Positions 21,359-46,040 are shown, counted from the stretch's first letter. The stretch: 64,000 nucleotides of DNA from GCF_055900595.2 NZ_CM148325.1, one strand, 5' to 3'. A program made the numbers and translations. The notes: generated by a model not told the origin, from the sequence alone.

Positions 21359-21397
21359 TGCTAACGTCAGATTGTTGACAAAGTGCGCGTCGTTCAT

Positions 21398-21495
21398 GCC
21401 GGATGCGGCGTGAACGCCTTATCCGGCCTACAAAAATCTTGCCAATTCAATATATTGCAGGATAGTGTAGGCCTGATAAGCGTAGCGCATCAGGC
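21398..21495. repeat. REP / BIME-type palindromic repeats between fepA and entD
   Basis: GCCGGATGCGGCGTGAACGCCTTATCCGGCCTAC and inverted partner GTAGGCCTGATAAGCGTAGCGCATCAGGC. Confidence 0.6.
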
Positions 21496-21532: not shown

Positions 21533-22153
21533 ATGAAAACTACGCATACCTCCCTCCCCTTTGCAGGACATACGCTGCATTTTGTTGAGTTCGATCCAGT
21601 GAGTTTTCGCGAGCAGGATTTACTCTGGCTGCCACACTACGCACAACTGCAACACGCTGGACGTAAACGTAAAACAGAGCATTTAGCCGGACGGATCGCT
21701 GCTGTTTACGCCTTGCGGGAATATGGCTATAAATGTGTGCCCGCAATCGGCGAGCTACGCCAACCTGTGTGGCCTGCGGAGGTATACGGCAGTATTAGCC
21801 ACTGCGGGACTACGGCATTAGCCGTGGTATCTCGTCAACCGATTGGCATTGATATCGAAGAGATTTTCTCTGTACAAACCGCAAGAGAATTGACAGACAA
21901 CATTATTACACCAGCAGAACACGAGCGACTCGCAGAATGCGGTTTAACCTTTTCTCTGGCGCTGACACTGGCATTTTCCGCCAAAGAGAGCGCATTTAAG
22001 GCAAGCAAGATACAGGCCGCTCAAGGTTTTCTGGATTATCAGATAATTAGCTGGAATAAACAGCAGATCATCATTCGACTAGAGGATGAGCAGTTTGCTG
22101 TGCACTGGCAGATAAAAGAAAAAATAGTCATAACGCTGTGCCAACACGATTAA
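21533..22153 (+). CDS. entD: 4'-phosphopantetheinyl transferase
   Basis: ATG at 21533 gives MKTTHTSLPFAGHTLHFVEFDPVSF... (206 aa); the longer ORF from 21383 is an upstream extension. Confidence 0.9.
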   Translation: MKTTHTSLPFAGHTLHFVEFDPVSFREQDLLWLPHYAQLQHAGRKRKTEHLAGRIAAVYALREYGYKCVPAIGELRQPVWPAEVYGSISHCGTTALAVVSRQPIGIDIEEIFSVQTARELTDNIITPAEHERLAECGLTFSLALTLAFSAKESAFKASKIQAAQGFLDYQIISWNKQQIIIRLEDEQFAVHWQIKEKIVITLCQHD

Positions 22154-22274
22154 TTGACAACATCTGGTACGATTCGCCCGCAGCCATCACTGACCACGGG
22201 CGAAAGTGTAAAGCAGGTGCCTTACCATCCTGACCTGACAACCGGATATGCGGGGATTGCTCCCCGCACAACGG

Positions 22275-22427
22275 CTACTTCTTCGGTTCGTAAGCGAGAA
22301 CAGCCTTAAACTCAATATTACGTTCCTTTACGGTAAACTCACACAGCGAGTCGCCGACCAGAAGCGTAAATCCCAGCACTGTCAAACATAGCACTATGAC
22401 CGCCACAAGGGCATATTTCGTCAGCAT
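22275..22427 (-). CDS. hokE: Hok-family type I toxin, copy A (HokE-like)
   Basis: 50-aa [50 protein letters not shown]; an upstream in-frame extension (ORF to 22571) may correspond to a mok-like leader frame. Confidence 0.8.
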
Positions 22428-22776
22428 GTTTATATTGCCTCCATGCGAAGAAGGGACTACCATCCAAATTGTCTGGTTTGGAGTGGCGGCCCCAGGGTTG
22501 ATAGAAATATCTCCTGGGGCTTCATCTTTCCAGACCTCAGAGTAAACCTGAAACCGGAAAGCTTCAGGCACCCGCCGTTATCTTACCCTTCCTTAGCAAA
22601 ATAGCTGTTTATTTATACAGTAAATCCTGTTCCGGACTTTTCATTGGTATTATCGCCCATGCCAGTTAAACGAAATCGCCCGCAGCCATTGCTGACCGCG
22701 GGCGAAAATGTAAAGCAGGTGCCTTACCATCCTGACCTGACAACCGGATATGCGGGGATTACTCCCCGCACAGCGG

Positions 22777-22929
22777 CTACTTCTTCGGTTCGTAAGCGAG
22801 AACAGCCTTAAACTCAATATTACGTTCCTTCACCGTAAACTCACACAGCGAGTCTCCGACCAGAAGCGTAAATCCCAGCACCGTCAAACACTGCACTATG
22901 ACTGCCACAAGGGCATATTTCGTCAGCAT
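22777..22929 (-). CDS. Hok-family type I toxin, copy B (variant with L13Q in the transmembrane segment)
   Basis: [20 protein letters not shown]...; differs from copy A by adjacent substitutions (CTA to CAG codon). Confidence 0.75.
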
Positions 22930-23371
22930 GTTTATATTGCCTCCATGCGAAGAAGGGACTACCATCCAAATTGTTCGGGTTTGGAGTGGCAGCCCCAGGG
23001 TTGATAGAAATATCTCCTGGGGCTTCATCTTTCCAGACCTCAGAGTAAACCTGAAACCGGAAAGCTTCAGGCACCCGCAGTCATCTTACCCTTCCTTAGC
23101 AAAATAGCTGTTTATTTATACAGTTGGTCTTATTTCGGACTTCTCACTACGCATTAGATCAACCGAAACTAAGCCAGTTTTTCCTTCGCCCCTCAATCAT
23201 CAAAATTCTCCGCCGCCAGCCAGCTCTGCCATAACTTGGCACATTGCAAAAGTAGCCAAACTTCTTCAGTCACAATCAGTTCACCATCACCAAAAAAAAG
23301 AAACATTCCAGAACTTCCGCATCTCCCCCGGCCGCTCCCACTTCTATACTGAAATGAAAACGCCAACATAA

Positions 23372-24499
<1,128 letters not shown>

Positions 24500-39780: not shown

Positions 39781-42739
39781 CCTTAATCGCGTCATCGGAT
39801 GGTCTGGTTTACTGCTGACGTCTTTATTGAGTACCAGCGCACTCGCAGACAATATCGGCACCAGCGCAGAAGAGCTGGGGCTGAGCGATTATCGCCATTT
39901 TGTTATTTATCCCCGTCTCGATAAGGCGCTGAAGGCACAGAAAAATAACGACGAAGCAACCGCCATCCGCGAATTTGAATATATACACCAGCAGGTGCCG
40001 GATAATATTCCGCTGACTTTATACCTTGCGGAAGCCTATCGCCATTTTGGTCATGATGACCGGGCGCGGCTGTTGCTTGAGGATCAACTGAAACGTCACC
40101 CAGGAGATGCCCGACTTGAGCGCAGTCTGGCGGCTATTCCAGTTGAAGTGAAAAGCGTTACGACTGTTGAAGAACTGCTTGCCCAGCAAAAAGCGTGCGA
40201 CGCTGCGCCGACCCTGCGTTGTCGCAGTGAAGTCGGGCAGAATGCCCTGCGGCTGGCACAATTACCTGTCGCCAGAGCGCAACTGAACGATGCGACGTTT
40301 GCTGCATCGACGGAAGGAAAAACGCTGCGAACCGATCTGCTGCAACGGGCAATCTACCTCAAGCAGTGGTCGCTGGCAGAAGCGTTGTTCAGTGAATCAC
40401 GGCAACAAAATACATTAAACGCAGCTGAGCGCCGTCAGTGGTTTGATGTTCTGCTCGCAGGCCAGCTGGATGATCGGATCCTGGCGCTGCAATCAGAGGG
40501 GATCTTCACCGATCCACAGTCATATATTACTTACGCGACCGCGCTGGCTTATCGTGGCGAGAAAGCACGCCTCCAGCATTATCTCATTGAAAATAAGCCG
40601 CTGTTTACCACGGACGCACAAGAGAAAAGTTGGCTCTATCTGTTATCTAAATACAGCGCCAACCCCGTTCAGGCGTTGGCGAATTATACGGTACAGTTTG
40701 CCGATAACCGCCAGTATGTTGTTGGCGCGACGCTACCGGTGCTGTTAAAAGAAGGTCAGTACGACGCAGCGCAAAAACTGCTCGCCACCCTCCCCGCCAA
40801 TGAAATGCTTGAGGAGCGTTATACCGTTAGCGTAGCGACCCATAACAAGGCTGAAGCTCTGCGTCTGGCACGATTGCTGTATCAGCAAGAACCGGCAAAT
40901 CTTACCCGCCTGGATCAACTGACCTGGCAACTGATGCAGAACGAGCAGTCACGCGAAGCTGCCGATTTATTGCTGCAACGCTATCCTTTCCAGGGCGATG
41001 CGCGTGTCAGCCAGACTTTAATGGCGCGACTGGCGTCTCTGCTGGAAAGTCATCCTTACCTGGCAACTCCGGCGAAGGTGGCGATTTTATCGAAACCCTT
41101 ACCGCTGGCGGAGCAACGTCAGTGGCAAAGTCAGTTGCCGGGTATTGCAGATAATTGCCCGGCAATAGTTCGCTTGCTGGGCGATATGTCGCCTTCCTAC
41201 GATGCCGCCGCCTGGAACCGTCTGGCAAAGTGTTATCGGGACACGCTACCCGGCGTGGCGTTGTATGCATGGCTTCAGGCCGAACAACGGCAACCGAACG
41301 CCTGGCAACATCGTGCGGTAGCCTATCAGGCGTATCAGGTTGAGGATTACGCCACCGCACTGGCGGCCTGGCAGAAAATCAGTCTTCACGACATGAGCAA
41401 TGAGGATCTGCTTGCTGCTGCCAATACCGCCCAGGCGGCAGGAAATGGTGCGGCTCGCGATCGCTGGCTTCAGCAGGCAGAACAACGTGGGCTGGGAAAC
41501 AATGCCCTCTACTGGTGGCTGCATGCGCAACGTTACATTCCTGGTCAGCCGGAACTCGCACTGAACGATCTCACGCGCTCAATCAATATTGCGCCTTCTG
41601 CCAACGCTTACGTTGCGCGGGCGACAATTTATCGCCAACGTCATAATGTCCCGGCGGCGGTGAGTGATTTGCGCGCCGCTCTGGAACTGGAACCGAATAA
41701 TAGCAACACCCAGGCAGCGCTCGGTTACGCCTTGTGGGATAGCGGTGATATTGCACAGTCGCGGGAAATGCTCGAACAGGCGCATAAAGGGCTACCGGAC
41801 GATCCGGCACTTATCCGACAACTGGCCTACGTGAACCAGCGTCTGGATGATATGCCTGCGACGCAGCACTACGCCCGGCTGGTGATTGATGACATTGATA
41901 ATCAGGCGCTGATAACCCCACTGACCCCAGAGCAAAATCAGCAACGCTTCAATTTCCGCCGTCTGCATGAGGAGGTCGGTCGCCGCTGGACGTTCAGTTT
42001 CGATTCTTCTATCGGCTTGCGTTCCGGCGCAATGAGTACCGCTAACAATAATGTCGGCGGCGCAGCGCCAGGGAAAAGCTATCGTAGCTACGGGCAACTG
42101 GAAGCCGAGTACCGCATCGGACGCAATATGCTGCTGGAAGGCGACCTGCTCTCGGTTTACAGCCGTGTATTTGCCGATACCGGAGAAAACGGGGTGATGA
42201 TGCCGGTGAAAAATCCGATGTCCGGCACCGGTCTGCGCTGGAAGCCGCTGCGCGATCAGATCTTTTTCCTCGCCGTCGAACAGCAGTTGCCGCTGAACGG
42301 GCAAAATGGCGCATCCGATACCATGCTGCGCGCCAGCGCCTCATTCTTTAATGGCGGCAAATACAGCGACGAATGGCACCCGAACGGTTCAGGCTGGTTT
42401 GCCCAAAACCTGTACCTCGATGCGGCGCAATATGTCCGCCAGGATATTCAGGCGTGGACGGCAGATTATCGCTTAAGCTGGCATCAGAAGGTGGCGAACG
42501 GACAGACTATTGAGCCTTACGCTCACGTTCAGGACAACGGCTATCGGGATAAAGGTACCCAGGGCGCGCAGCTTGGCGGTGTCGGTGTCCGCTGGAATAT
42601 CTGGACCGGCGAGACGCACTACGACGCCTGGCCGCACAAAGTCAGTCTCGGCGTCGAATATCAACATACCTTTAAGGCGATTAATCAACGTAACGGAGAG
42701 CGCAACAACGCGTTTCTCACCATTGGAGTGCACTGGTAA
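39767..42739 (+). CDS. nfrA: NfrA outer-membrane protein (phage N4 adsorption protein A), TPR-rich
   Basis: ATG at 39767 gives MKENNLNRVIGWSGLLLTSLLSTSALA...; overlaps the nfrB stop; C-terminal beta-barrel-like region ending in W. Confidence 0.9.
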   Translation: MKENNLNRVIGWSGLLLTSLLSTSALADNIGTSAEELGLSDYRHFVIYPRLDKALKAQKNNDEATAIREFEYIHQQVPDNIPLTLYLAEAYRHFGHDDRARLLLEDQLKRHPGDARLERSLAAIPVEVKSVTTVEELLAQQKACDAAPTLRCRSEVGQNALRLAQLPVARAQLNDATFAASTEGKTLRTDLLQRAIYLKQWSLAEALFSESRQQNTLNAAERRQWFDVLLAGQLDDRILALQSEGIFTDPQSYITYATALAYRGEKARLQHYLIENKPLFTTDAQEKSWLYLLSKYSANPVQALANYTVQFADNRQYVVGATLPVLLKEGQYDAAQKLLATLPANEMLEERYTVSVATHNKAEALRLARLLYQQEPANLTRLDQLTWQLMQNEQSREAADLLLQRYPFQGDARVSQTLMARLASLLESHPYLATPAKVAILSKPLPLAEQRQWQSQLPGIADNCPAIVRLLGDMSPSYDAAAWNRLAKCYRDTLPGVALYAWLQAEQRQPNAWQHRAVAYQAYQVEDYATALAAWQKISLHDMSNEDLLAAANTAQAAGNGAARDRWLQQAEQRGLGNNALYWWLHAQRYIPGQPELALNDLTRSINIAPSANAYVARATIYRQRHNVPAAVSDLRAALELEPNNSNTQAALGYALWDSGDIAQSREMLEQAHKGLPDDPALIRQLAYVNQRLDDMPATQHYARLVIDDIDNQALITPLTPEQNQQRFNFRRLHEEVGRRWTFSFDSSIGLRSGAMSTANNNVGGAAPGKSYRSYGQLEAEYRIGRNMLLEGDLLSVYSRVFADTGENGVMMPVKNPMSGTGLRWKPLRDQIFFLAVEQQLPLNGQNGASDTMLRASASFFNGGKYSDEWHPNGSGWFAQNLYLDAAQYVRQDIQAWTADYRLSWHQKVANGQTIEPYAHVQDNGYRDKGTQGAQLGGVGVRWNIWTGETHYDAWPHKVSLGVEYQHTFKAINQRNGERNNAFLTIGVHW

Positions 42740-43630
42740 ATGCGTAAGTTCATTTTCGTATTGCTGACACTGCTTTTGGTCAGCCCTTTTTCCTTTGCGA
42801 TGAAAGGTATTATCTGGCAACCACAAAACCGTGATAGTCAGGTTACCGATACCCAGTGGCAGGGGCTGATGAGTCAGTTACGTTTGCAAGGCTTCGATAC
42901 CCTGGTTTTGCAATGGACCCGTTACGGCGATGCATTCACCCAGCCAGAACAGCGCGCGTTATTGTTTAAGCGTGCCGCAGCTGCGCAACAGGCTGGCCTG
43001 AAGCTGATTGTCGGGCTGAATGCCGATCCGGAATTTTTTATGCACCAGAAACAGTCATCCGCGGCGCTGGAAAGCTATCTTAATCGCCTGCTGGCTGCCG
43101 ATCTCCAGCAAGCCAGATTATGGAGCGCCGTACCTGGCGTAACGCCGGATGGCTGGTACATCAGCGCGGAAATTGACGACCTGAACTGGCGCAGCGAAGC
43201 CGTCCGTCAGCCCTTGCTAACGTGGTTAAACAATGCGCAGCGGCTGATTAGTGATGTTTCGGCAAAACCGGTTTATATCAGTAGTTTTTTCGCCGGAAAT
43301 ATGTCGCCCGATGGCTATCGCCAACTGCTGGAACACGTTAAAGCAACCGGCGTTAATGTCTGGGTTCAGGATGGCAGCGGCGTTGATAAACTCACCGCTG
43401 AACAGCGTGAACGTTATCTACAGGCCAGCGCCGATTGCCAAAGCTCCGCCCCAGCAAGCGGCATTGTTTATGAACTGTTTGTCGCCGGCAAAGGCAAAAC
43501 CTTTACCGCGAAACCGAAACCGGATGCAGAGATCGCCTCGCTGTTAGCGAAACGTTCCTCTTGCGGTAAAGACACGCTCTATTTCTCTCTGCGCTATTTG
43601 CCCGTCGCGCACGGCATTCTCGAGTATTAA
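42740..43630 (+). CDS. ybcH: Periplasmic protein YbcH (third gene of the nfrBA-ybcH unit)
   Basis: 296-aa MRKFIFVLLTLLLVSPFSFAMKGIIWQP..., start immediately after the nfrA stop. Confidence 0.85.
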   Translation: MRKFIFVLLTLLLVSPFSFAMKGIIWQPQNRDSQVTDTQWQGLMSQLRLQGFDTLVLQWTRYGDAFTQPEQRALLFKRAAAAQQAGLKLIVGLNADPEFFMHQKQSSAALESYLNRLLAADLQQARLWSAVPGVTPDGWYISAEIDDLNWRSEAVRQPLLTWLNNAQRLISDVSAKPVYISSFFAGNMSPDGYRQLLEHVKATGVNVWVQDGSGVDKLTAEQRERYLQASADCQSSAPASGIVYELFVAGKGKTFTAKPKPDAEIASLLAKRSSCGKDTLYFSLRYLPVAHGILEY

Positions 43631-43812
43631 ATCTCCTCCAGGTAAGTCGGGTACGACCTGGCTTACCTCTTTCGCTCTCGTCAGAATTCCATCAAGATTA
43701 ATTGCTAAAAAGCGTGCTAAAGAAAGAAGATCGTTATCGGCGAACGGGCCGATCACTCATGCAGGAAGCATAGATCCTTTGAGCGGAGTTTCTGATATCT
43801 GAGGAGTGCGAA

Positions 43813-44574
43813 ATGCAATTGAGCAGCAGTGAACCTTGCGTGGTGATCCTGACCGAAAAAGAGGTAGAGGTAAGCGTCAATAACCATGCTACGTTTACCC
43901 TTCCGAAAAACTACCTGGCCGCCTTCGCGTGCAACAATAACGTCATTGAACTCTCAACGTTAAATCACGTATTAATCACCCACATCAACCGTAACATCAT
44001 CAACGATTATCTGTTGTTTTTAAATAAGAACTTAACCTGTGTAAAGCCCTGGTCGCGGCTGGCTACCCCGGTTATCGCTTGTCATAGCCGTACACCGGAA
44101 GTGTTCCGGCTAGCCGCCAACCACAGCAAGCAGCAACCCAGCAAACCCTGCGAAGCGGAGTTGACGCGCGCATTGCTTTTTACCGTATTGTCTAACTTTC
44201 TTGAGCAATCGCGGTTTATTGCCCTACTGATGTATATCTTACGCAGCAGCGTCCGCGACAGCGTCTGCCGCATTATTCAAAGCGATATTCAGCATTACTG
44301 GAATCTGCGAATTGTCGCCAGTTCGCTATGTTTAAGCCCCAGCCTGCTCAAAAAGAAATTAAAAAACGAAAATACCAGCTATAGCCAGATTGTCACAGAG
44401 TGTCGTATGCGTTACGCCGTACAGATGTTATTGATGGATAACAAAAATATCACTCAGGTAGCGCAATTATGTGGCTATAGCAGCACGTCGTACTTTATCT
44501 CTGTTTTTAAGGCGTTTTACGGCCTGACACCGTTGAATTATCTCGCCAAACAGCGACAAAAAGTGATGTGGTGA
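43813..44574 (+). CDS. envY: AraC-family transcriptional regulator EnvY
   Basis: 253-aa ORF with a C-terminal AraC-type HTH (QVAQLCGYSSTSYFISVFKAFYGLTPLNY). Confidence 0.85.
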   Translation: MQLSSSEPCVVILTEKEVEVSVNNHATFTLPKNYLAAFACNNNVIELSTLNHVLITHINRNIINDYLLFLNKNLTCVKPWSRLATPVIACHSRTPEVFRLAANHSKQQPSKPCEAELTRALLFTVLSNFLEQSRFIALLMYILRSSVRDSVCRIIQSDIQHYWNLRIVASSLCLSPSLLKKKLKNENTSYSQIVTECRMRYAVQMLLMDNKNITQVAQLCGYSSTSYFISVFKAFYGLTPLNYLAKQRQKVMW

Positions 44575-44619
44575 AGGGCAAAGCGGAAACAGATAAGACT
44601 GGCATAAATCAAGAAGAAA

Positions 44620-44664
44620 TGGCGCGCCCTGCAGGATTCGAACCTGCGGCCCACGACTTAGAAG
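44620..44664 (-). other. 45-nt copy of the 3' end of tRNA-Arg (argU), a prophage attachment-site repeat and not an intact tRNA
   Basis: Minus strand reads CTTCTAAGTCGTGGGCCGCAGGTTCGAATCCTGCAGGGCGCGCCA (T-arm, acceptor stem and CCA); identity to argU as recalled stops at the anticodon-stem side and there is no D-arm or anticodon loop. Confidence 0.75.
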
Positions 44665-45086
44665 TTCCTAGAACGACATTTTAAGTCAACAACTTACCGC
44701 GCCATCTCTGCGCTCACACGTCCCACTACCTCAAAACATGTAAAGCCTTGCAAGCCATTGTGAGGCCTTATGTGTCTCAGTTTTGTCCCTCTTTTTTGTA
44801 CTAAAAAACATAGTAATTGAGGATAAACCTCATGCTATTTTCGCTTATATGCCTCTAAAGGCATGGCACTTAAATAGATAAAAGCACCACAAAAGCATAA
44901 AAAACCACACAGTAAAACCGCAATATGAAACAATAACAGATAATTAAACCAAAAACAGATAGCGCATTGTGATAATCATTCAATACTAAACAAAATATAA
45001 ACAGTGGAGCAATATGTAATTGACTCATTAAGTTAGATATAAAAAATACATATTCAATCATTAAAACGATTGAATGGAGAACTTTT

Positions 45087-46040
45087 ATGCGGGCGAAACT
45101 TCTGGGAATATTCCTGACAACCCCTATTGCGATCAGCTCTTTTGCTTCTACCGAGACTTTATCGTTTACTCCTGACAACATAAATGCGGACATTAGTCTT
45201 GGAACTCTGAGCGGAAAAACAAAAGAGCGTGTTTATCTAGCCGAAGAAGGAGGCCGAAAAGTCAGTCAACTCGACTGGAAATTCAATAACGCTGCAATTA
45301 TTAAAGGTGCAATTAATTGGGATTTGATGCCCCAGATATCTATTGGGGCTGCGGGCTGGACTACTCTCGGCAGCCGAGGTGGCAATATGGTCGATCAGGA
45401 CTGGATGGATTCCAGTAACCCCGGAACCTGGACAGATGAAAGTAGGCACCCTGATACACAACTCAATTATGCCAACGAATTTGATCTGAATATAAAAGGC
45501 TGGCTCCTCAACGAACCCAATTACCGCCTGGGACTCATGGCCGGATATCAGGAAAGCCGTTATAGCTTTACAGCCAGAGGTGGTTCCTATATCTACAGTT
45601 CTGAGGAGGGATTCAGAGATGATATCGGCTCCTTCCCGAATGGAGAAAGAGCAATCGGCTACAAACAACGTTTTAAAATGCCCTACATTGGCTTGACTGG
45701 AAGTTATCGTTATGAAGATTTTGAGCTAGGTGGCACATTTAAATACAGCGGCTGGGTGGAAGCATCTGATAACGATGAGCACTATGACCCAGGAAAAAGA
45801 ATCACTTATCGCAGTAAAGTCAAAGACCAAAATTACTATTCTGTTGCAGTCAATGCAGGTTATTACGTAACACCTAACGCAAAAGTTTATGTTGAAGGCG
45901 CATGGAATCGGGTTACGAATAAAAAAGGTAATACTTCACTTTATGATCACAATGATAACACTTCAGACTACAGCAAAAATGGTGCAGGCATAGAAAACTA
46001 TAACTTCATCACTACTGCTGGTCTTAAGTACACATTTTAA
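45087..46040 (+). CDS. ompT: Outer-membrane protease (omptin)
   Basis: 317-aa MRAKLLGIFLTTPIAISSFASTETLSFTPDNINADISLGTLSGK... ending ...AGLKYTF. Confidence 0.9.
   Translation: MRAKLLGIFLTTPIAISSFASTETLSFTPDNINADISLGTLSGKTKERVYLAEEGGRKVSQLDWKFNNAAIIKGAINWDLMPQISIGAAGWTTLGSRGGNMVDQDWMDSSNPGTWTDESRHPDTQLNYANEFDLNIKGWLLNEPNYRLGLMAGYQESRYSFTARGGSYIYSSEEGFRDDIGSFPNGERAIGYKQRFKMPYIGLTGSYRYEDFELGGTFKYSGWVEASDNDEHYDPGKRITYRSKVKDQNYYSVAVNAGYYVTPNAKVYVEGAWNRVTNKKGNTSLYDHNDNTSDYSKNGAGIENYNFITTAGLKYTF

Follow-up and report, generated by a model that had tools for sequence, protein, structure and literature searches.

A two-unit tandem hokE/sokE array between entD and ybdK of Escherichia coli, probably an old copy-number polymorphism

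The hokE/sokE locus of Escherichia coli K-12 (b4415/b4835, with IS186B) is a single toxin-antitoxin unit in the order ybdK - sokE/hokE - entD, with IS186 inserted in its 3′ UTR hairpin. RefSeq also holds hokE arrays of two or three units with the same site and period as the one described here (O157:H7 ATCC 43894, ST131 strain 751, EC42405 and others). A 2026 preprint defines a hok islet as two or more hok genes within 2 kb that belong to the same 60% identity cluster, places 10% of Hok genes in islets of 2-6 with an origin in local duplication, and assigns 13.5% of Escherichia chromosomal hok genes to islets (bioRxiv 10.1101/2025.08.07.668861). Plasmid R1 hok/sok resembles the chromosomal units in its Hok/Gef peptide, in its RF01794 leader fold and 5′-3′ fold-back pairing, and in a short antisense RNA, encoded in cis, that combines an unpaired 5′ tail with a terminator hairpin. 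Multi-copy type I modules whose paralogues differ by a few nucleotides in the antisense recognition region are found in zorO-orzO/zorP-orzP of O157:H7, where the V1 region lets OrzO, and not OrzP, repress zorO (PMC3919570), and in ibs/sib, where Sib RNAs repress only their cognate ibs (PMC2943612).

We analysed a window of 64,000 nucleotides from NZ_CM148325.1 (GCF_055900595.2), in which two direct tandem units on the minus strand, with a period of 502-503 bp and about 95% identity, lie between entD and ybdK. We read this region, with a probability of about 0.9, as a two-unit tandem array of the chromosomal E. coli hokE/sokE type I toxin-antitoxin module and as an old copy-number polymorphism. 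The flanks entD and ybdK are the known hokE site, common to K-12 and 25 other genomes, and no IS was found within the window. The two ORFs are 502 bp apart and their proteins are 98% identical, which makes the pair a hok islet as defined in the preprint (bioRxiv 10.1101/2025.08.07.668861). The features of the region are as follows, with unit A on the entD side and unit B on the ybdK side.

21533-22153, plus strand: entD, left flank; the ORF ends at 22153, and RefSeq entD (621 nt) has the same position in related genomes
22175-22573, minus strand: predicted full-length hokE-A mRNA, 399 nt; 5′ end at the start of the Rfam match (22573), 3′ end at the terminal hairpin
22252-22265, minus strand: 3′ UTR hairpin of unit A, GGGGAGCAATCCCC; the IS186 insertion site in other strains
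22275-22427, minus strand: hokE-A coding sequence, 50 aa; Pfam HOK_GEF 34.0 bits
22435-22463, plus strand: predicted Sok-A promoter TTGCCT-17-TACCAT from a relaxed scan; overlapping, on the other strand, the start region of hok
22468-22488, minus strand: hypervariable patch of unit A, hok mRNA +86 to +106
22471-22529, plus strand: sokE-A, 59 nt, by homology to annotated MG1655 sokE (b4835, 60 nt)
22644-22675: unit junction, where the upstream region of unit A meets the 3′ end of unit B
22677-23076, minus strand: predicted full-length hokE-B mRNA, 400 nt; 5′ end at the start of the Rfam match (23076)
22754-22767, minus strand: 3′ UTR hairpin of unit B, GGGGAGTAATCCCC, with the IS186 target motif
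22777-22929, minus strand: hokE-B coding sequence, 50 aa, with L13Q (…VIVQCLTV…); Pfam HOK_GEF 31.6 bits
22937-22965, plus strand: predicted Sok-B promoter TTGCCT-17-TACCAT from a relaxed scan; the 45 nt upstream of sokE-B are the same in unit A and in K-12
22970-22991, minus strand: hypervariable patch of unit B, hok mRNA +86 to +107
22973-23032, plus strand: sokE-B, 60 nt, 100% identical to annotated K-12 sokE
23381-24499, plus strand: ybdK, right flank; an ORF, annotated as ybdK in all related loci

The repeat search revealed direct copies at 22174-22473 and 22676-22975 (300 nt, 95%) and a second direct block at 22472-22643 and 22975-23146 (172 nt, 94%). When the units were aligned with MAFFT in minus-strand reading, the mean column identity was 94%, with 24 substitutions and one 1-nt indel between them over about 470 nt. 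Tandem Repeats Finder returned no rows for the array because the period is just above its 500-bp limit, so that the array was defined by the repeat search and MAFFT. That the hokE/sokE locus is duplicated in tandem, as the initial annotation proposed, is borne out by the repeat search, MAFFT, the ORFs and the Pfam and Rfam matches, and so is its placing of a 50-aa Hok-family toxin in each unit of about 502 bp, since both minus-strand ORFs score above the Pfam HOK_GEF (PF01848) cut-off of 22 bits. The extent that it gave, 22174-23123, is right at the left end and slightly short at the right, where weaker homology between the units continues to about 23163. The 3′ end of entD adjoins the terminal hairpin of unit A.

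Short-read assemblies mishandle this repeat, and in one draft (GCA_002087635.1) an N-gap interrupts the hok region, which could raise the suspicion of an artefact of assembly, or else of a very recent event confined to the source strain. Either is extremely improbable. The units cannot be one unit assembled twice, because 24 substitutions and an indel separate them, and a divergence of 5% leaves no room for a recent duplication or for an assembly that collapsed or expanded the repeat. In addition, the entD-ybdK segment (3,117 bp) is 100% identical in GCA_018085045.1, and two- or three-unit arrays occur across thousands of complete genomes.

The frequency of the array was assessed with a 91-nt probe spanning the junction (22615-22705), which a single-copy locus cannot match contiguously; counting alignments over at least 80% of its length, the probe gave a contiguous match in 2,345 of the 5,426 complete E. 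coli genomes (about 43%). All 13 of the probe matches that were inspected carried two or three annotated hokE genes, and a spread sample obtained with a wider query had two hokE genes in 14 of 40 genomes. RefSeq/PGAP names both copies hokE in O157:H7 ATCC 43894, ST131 strain 751 and many others, and three-unit arrays are present in EC42405 and 2020N21-246. The initial annotation had set the duplication against K-12; it was correct that K-12 has a single hokE with IS186 and that the window has two intact units without an IS, as the K-12 annotation and the window confirm, but the duplication is a common old E. coli polymorphism, and a two-unit array annotated in about 43% of complete genomes is therefore ordinary. 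Both the duplication and the L13Q protein described below are already known from public annotation, and hok islets in Escherichia have already been reported. Compared with the other RefSeq arrays, the window differs only in its combination of unit types, a K-12-type tail with L13Q and a deletion-type tail, and this combination is also public in GCA_018085045.1. Window positions 40000-46000 are 100% identical to several E. coli genomes, whereas the hokE locus is only 91-97% identical to most genomes because of allelic diversity at the locus; a non-coli Escherichia, which the lower identity had suggested, was rejected on the strength of the 40000-46000 match. Against the K-12 unit, unit B shows 96% identity, and the 50-aa toxins of the window are one or two residues away from K-12 HokE. 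The K-12 protein carries V8A; in the window, unit A encodes the common protein and unit B the L13Q form.

To describe the diversity of the toxin gene, we compared 25 hokE alleles from 53 units, which gave a pS of 0.10 and a pN/pS of 0.11; the units are therefore old, and the peptide is under purifying selection. The unit types are not bound to a position: the deletion-type leader belongs to the entD-side unit in both the window and ST131 but to the ybdK-side unit in O157:H7, which implies reshuffling by recombination. Single-copy loci are chimeric in various ways, PEC403 being A-like throughout and K-12 and Z0117EC0005 being B-like with an A-like tail, and these varied chimeras fit a repeated collapse of arrays. 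In Z0117EC0005, unit B runs to nt 409, followed by IS186 and then by the tail of unit A, and the locus is elsewhere identical to the window. The two copies of its target-site duplication differ, T versus C (GGGAGTAATCCC versus GGGAGCAATCCC), exactly as unit B differs from unit A. IS186 in K-12 occupies the same hairpin site in the opposite orientation, with identical duplication copies, and YZMc3-1 has two units and an IS. The target consensus of IS186, reportedly from SaiSree et al. 2001, is said to be GGGG-N6-CCCC, which matches the hokE 3′ UTR hairpin. SaiSree et al. 2001 is cited in PMC3045373. The simplest reading of Z0117EC0005 would be an insertion of IS186 into the GGGG-N6-CCCC hairpin and a subsequent loss of exactly one period, either through IS-IS recombination or because the element transposed intramolecularly into this motif in the adjacent unit. 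The locus exists as a copy-number polymorphism of one, two or three units, with unit types probably shuffled between positions via recombination and with arrays probably collapsing to one unit via recombination or an IS186-associated deletion, as in the close relative Z0117EC0005.

Next to the coding sequences, both units have a recognisable hok leader and a predicted fold-back of the kind usual in hok mRNAs. Rfam RF01794 matched the full-length leader on the hok strand of both units, with 83.9 bits in unit A and 84.4 bits in unit B (gathering score 59). In the ViennaRNA minimum-energy folds, nt 1-8 of the mRNA pair with nt 352-359 in unit A and with nt 353-360 in unit B, an in silico tac/fbi-type fold-back in which GGGUGCCU at nt 1-8 pairs with AGGCACCU at 352-360. 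Both predicted transcripts end in a 12-bp terminal hairpin (ViennaRNA), and in unit B a T-rich tail comes after a terminator-like hairpin at 22676-22705. Units A and B are identical in their tac and fbi elements, in the promoter and terminator of Sok and in the hok Shine-Dalgarno sequence.

A strict consensus sigma-70 scan of 22100-23400 returned no promoter at all; for the hok mRNA, a relaxed scan gave only weak candidates (a TAAGAT -10-like hexamer). At the counterpart of the R1 mok AUG, no canonical mok start was found in either unit. Both units have a frame that corresponds to R1 mok and overlaps hok, with no canonical start near a GGGG Shine-Dalgarno-like site. In unit A, the frame opening at GTG+3 continues into hok (98-aa ORF); in unit B, the GTG+3 frame is the mok-like overlapping frame (77 aa), and it is the AUG+48 frame that enters hok (83 aa). 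These reading-frame registers differ between A and B because of the 1-nt indel at +98. The prediction of Mok has been called 'not trivial' (bioRxiv 10.1101/2025.08.07.668861). In contrast to R1 hok/sok, the locus of the window is chromosomal and has no mok start codon at the homologous position, and the R1 and window Sok sequences are too diverged for cross-reaction; chromosomal Soks do not repress R1 hok (PMC9841398).

Since neither a canonical mok start nor a strong hok promoter was found in the window scans, and since earlier work found chromosomal hokA, hokB and hokC to be without post-segregational killing or rifampicin activation (cited in bioRxiv 10.1101/2025.08.07.668861), one might take both units for inert relics. 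We consider this improbable. The pN/pS of 0.11 shows purifying selection, and both units have conserved the tac/fbi pairing, the promoter and terminator of Sok, the Shine-Dalgarno sequence of hok and the UACG at Tyr46. Moreover, K-12 HokE is listed among controls previously shown to be toxic (bioRxiv 10.1101/2025.08.07.668861). On the plasmid R1 paradigm, each 502-bp unit, which is complete at the sequence level with an hok mRNA of about 400 nt, a 50-aa HokE membrane peptide and a 59-60-nt SokE, would make a full-length hok mRNA that is translationally inert and that slow 3′ trimming would refold; Sok would pair with the leader and trigger decay by RNase III, and upon loss of Sok, HokE would be made and would damage the inner membrane.

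The peptides of both units have the characteristics of the Hok/Gef family, namely about 50 aa, an N-terminal membrane helix and conserved cysteines. Cys14 and Cys29 are present in HokE-A and HokE-B, and the Tyr46 codon is UAC in a UACG context in both units; in the mRNAs of hokC, hokD and hokE, TadA editing at the Tyr46 codon yields the second Cys of the disulfide (bioRxiv 10.1101/2025.08.07.668861). The hokE-A protein is the commonest HokE protein (WP_000956465.1 type). Between the hokE-A and hokE-B coding sequences there are five synonymous differences and a difference at codon 13, which is CTG in the population, CTA in hokE-A (a lineage-private synonymous variant of CTG) and CAG in hokE-B (22891-22893). 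Translation of the ORF agrees with the L13Q change claimed earlier for the helix of the copy B toxin. The claim had derived this change from adjacent substitutions; the CTA/CAG difference between the copies is real, but a single CTG>CAG change suffices for L13Q, which does not stem from both substitutions. Measured against CTG, codon 13 records two independent events: copy A changed synonymously, and one T>A substitution in copy B gave L13Q.

NCBI already lists the L13Q protein under the name HokE on 179 contigs (for example EEW2166634.1; E. coli O103 is included), and the two major HokE alleles are each on at least 1,000 contigs. L13Q was placed in the entD-side unit, in the ybdK-side unit and in an apparently single unit of one draft with an N-gap inside the hok region, and its CAG codon was found on two different leader backgrounds. 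Other strains have the HokE helix variants V8A (K-12), V10A, L7F, L18P (O157:H7 unit B) and G25R; L18P combined with K41R lowers the Pfam HOK_GEF score by 5 bits. The change in the ybdK-side unit, L13Q, is a minor allele that differs by one nucleotide and is already in circulation in many E. coli.

What does a glutamine at position 13 mean for the toxin? It had been proposed that the copy B toxin may be attenuated, with Gln13 being a polar residue in the membrane helix, which we regard as possible but rather unlikely. To our knowledge, all characterised Hok proteins have V, I or L before the C-(L/I/V/F/A)-T motif. The L13Q substitution lowers the Pfam HOK_GEF score by 2.4 bits, and the occurrence of CAG at codon 13 on two unit backgrounds could mean recurrent selection for a weaker toxin. 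The R1 Hok residue equivalent to HokE position 13 is V15. The helix mutations C11R, V12G and L17P of R1 Hok each abolish killing at native single-copy expression (PMC9841398). Against attenuation, the score loss is about that of V8A (1.9 bits), the substitution of K-12 HokE, one of the controls listed as toxic. The helix also remains strongly hydrophobic, since the mean Kyte-Doolittle hydropathy of residues 5-24 is 2.71 with Leu13 and 2.34 with Gln13. Within the membrane, one Gln or Asn residue in a helix can make helices associate instead of blocking insertion. The persistence of the allele on 179 contigs fits neutrality equally well. Furthermore, overexpressed Hok stays toxic with Ala at each of 7 conserved residues, and 42 of 45 diverse Hok homologues were toxic, toxicity not being predictable from sequence according to the authors (bioRxiv 10.1101/2025.08.07.668861).

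Each unit is predicted to encode a cis-encoded Sok with its own promoter and terminator. The predicted +1 lies 7 nt downstream of TACCAT and matches the annotated 5′ end of K-12 sokE, which the MG1655 annotation puts on the strand opposite hokE, 44 nt upstream of its ATG. The hexamers TTGCCT and TACCAT have been recorded at ybdK/sokE by genomic SELEX of RpoD promoters (PMC3946193). An 88-89-nt Sok transcribed from an AGGGCA-17-TATATT promoter was also considered and was dropped, as MG1655 annotates a 60-nt SokE that starts 27 nt further in. Each Sok folds into a 10-11-nt single-stranded 5′ tail and a GC-rich terminator hairpin, followed by UUCAUCUUU. SokB is the K-12 SokE, while SokA matches MG1655 sokE at 56-57 of 60 positions; nt 2-5 hold one indel and 1-2 substitutions, and a further substitution lies at nt 18. 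SokA and SokB differ by GUCUGG versus GUUCGGG at the extreme 5′ end and by G versus A at nt 18, so that three of the four differences fall within nt 2-5. The alignment, with four A/B differences in the Sok-complementary leader, thereby upholds the changes that had been noted for copy B in the antisense-pairing region.

To determine where the units vary, we aligned 26 of them, leaving out of the unit alignments a draft with an N-gap and a metagenome contig with indels, both of which distorted them. The patch at +86 to +107 of the hok mRNA was variable in 12 of its 22 columns (pi 0.19), whereas the other transcribed segments had 7-21% variable columns and a pi of 0.01-0.04 (Fisher p=6.6e-5 for the excess in the patch). 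This patch is the loop and upper stem of the Sok-target leader hairpin modelled by Rfam, and on the opposite strand it is nt 1-20 of SokE, including the single-stranded 5′ tail. The differences between hokE paralogues are thus concentrated in the antisense recognition region. One haplotype family shows two compensatory pairs, with CCAAA/UUUGG changed to CCGAG/CUCGG, and an intermediate form is present. There are at least 12 tail haplotypes, and co-resident units always differ in the 24 multi-copy genomes (13 distinct arrays). Tail-to-target duplex energies were -29.5 to -34 kcal/mol for cognate and -11 to -29 kcal/mol for non-cognate pairs; in the window they were -31.3 and -32.1 kcal/mol for the cognate pairs versus -21.7 and -23.6 for the cross pairs, which are 8-10 weaker.

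We hypothesize, as one possibility that we doubt more than we favour, that co-resident units are mutually insulated modules, in which the Sok 5′ tail and the target loop would let each Sok repress mainly its own hok mRNA; the SokE tail and loop would then be a fast-evolving specificity determinant, and arrays would persist only with different tails. The variability of the patch compared with the rest of the transcribed unit, its coincidence with nt 1-20 of the annotated SokE, the number of tail haplotypes with 13 of 13 distinct multi-copy arrays sampled being heterotypic, the compensatory changes in stem pairs and the stronger cognate tail duplexes of the window are all consistent with insulation. 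Precedents are the discrimination between OrzO and OrzP via the short V1 region (PMC3919570) and the repression by Sib of only its cognate ibs (PMC2943612), although discrimination was shown experimentally for zor/orz and ibs/sib, and in hokE arrays it would be deduced only from the location of the variation. However, mutation does not break the complementarity between a cis-encoded antisense RNA and its target, and therefore a loop without other constraint can drift neutrally. Heterotypic arrays are also expected by chance in about 80% of pairs, a rate that 13 of 13 does not significantly exceed (about 0.8^13 = 0.05, with no correction for shared ancestry). In addition, the full-length Sok/hok cross duplexes are still very stable (-173 and -175 kcal/mol, versus -186 and -187 for the cognate duplexes), and the cross pairs of the window retain 13 contiguous complementary nucleotides (Sok nt 5-17).

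For the organism, the results reported above mean that K-12, with one unit and IS186, represents an atypical state. About 4 in 10 complete E. coli genomes have two or three hokE modules, and counts of toxin genes in work on persistence or phage defence should allow for them; short-read assemblies can collapse the hokE repeat. The hypervariability of the Sok tail is the only part of the locus that might repay work: if the Sok tail confers cognate specificity, the hokE arrays would offer a natural example, on a chromosome, of how the specificity of antisense RNAs evolves inside a tandem array.

Three hokE units were observed in EC42405 (comparison locus L016, 1168-2318) and in 2020N21-246 (L019, 960-2119), and the Sok-tail haplotype, which spans the 5' end of the SokE antisense RNA and its target in the hok leader, was different in every unit of both arrays. 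The hok region of the draft genome GCA_002087635.1 (L010) contains a run of N at about 2790-2960, so this short-read assembly has the tandem array collapsed or gapped. The "single-copy" context of the Leu13-to-Gln toxin variant (L13Q) may be unreliable, both in this draft and in 18 similar places.

The ends of the two units in the window were compared at their terminal hairpins:

Window 22174-22203: terminal hairpin of unit A (entD side)
Window 22676-22705: terminal hairpin of unit B (ybdK side)

The hairpin of unit B scores as a terminator and has a T-rich tail (TTTCGTTTAA) after it; that of unit A is followed by ATCGTACCAG, which lacks a T-run, immediately ahead of the convergent end of entD. 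At four comparison loci, from ST131 strain 751 (L005), MSB2_1A (L017), BRG214 (L028), and AH20E044 (L029), the entD-side unit has its terminal hairpin directly next to genes for an SDR-family oxidoreductase and an ABC transporter rather than next to entD. An inserted or replaced segment therefore stops at the array's edge. Separately, an Rfam search of window 21387-21474, between fepA and entD, matched ES036 above its gathering score (44.4 bits) and naRNA4 below its gathering score (38.4 bits); these matches are REP-element-like sequences without relation to the hokE array.

Within and opposite the hok leader and coding region, the following features were located:

Window 22898-23107 and 22396-22545, plus strand: PGAP "hypothetical protein" antisense to the hok leader
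Window 22457-22525 (unit A) and 22777-23028 (unit B), minus strand: predicted ORF from the AUG at hok mRNA +48
Window 22290-22292 and 22792-22794, minus strand: UAC codon for Tyr46, part of a UACG motif

The "hypothetical protein" is annotated antisense to every hok leader in L001-L029, frequently flagged as frameshifted or as having an internal stop, and overlaps the Sok gene. It appears to be a spurious ORF, and the "frameshifts" in it reflect no more than the indel polymorphism of the hypervariable patch. In unit A, the predicted ORF from AUG +48 has 22 codons and ends ahead of hok; its counterpart in unit B, as in K-12-type units, continues in frame into hok (83 aa). The UACG motif at Tyr46 is kept in both units. 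TadA-mediated A-to-I editing at the Tyr46 codon of the hokC, hokD, and hokE mRNAs is reported to yield the second disulfide cysteine (bioRxiv 10.1101/2025.08.07.668861).

The IS186 insertion site lies in a hairpin of the 3' UTR:

Window 22252-22265 and 22754-22767: hairpin GGGGAG(C/T)AATCCCC
L009 2733-2745 and 4083-4094, and L003: the same insertion-site hairpin in comparison loci

Locus comparison revealed IS186 at the identical hairpin site in K-12 and Z0117EC0005, in opposite orientations. The target-site copies in Z0117EC0005 are unequal, with the B-type T on one side and the A-type C on the other. This inequality implies that Z0117EC0005 derives from a two-unit ancestor resembling the window, with the loss of exactly one repeat period.
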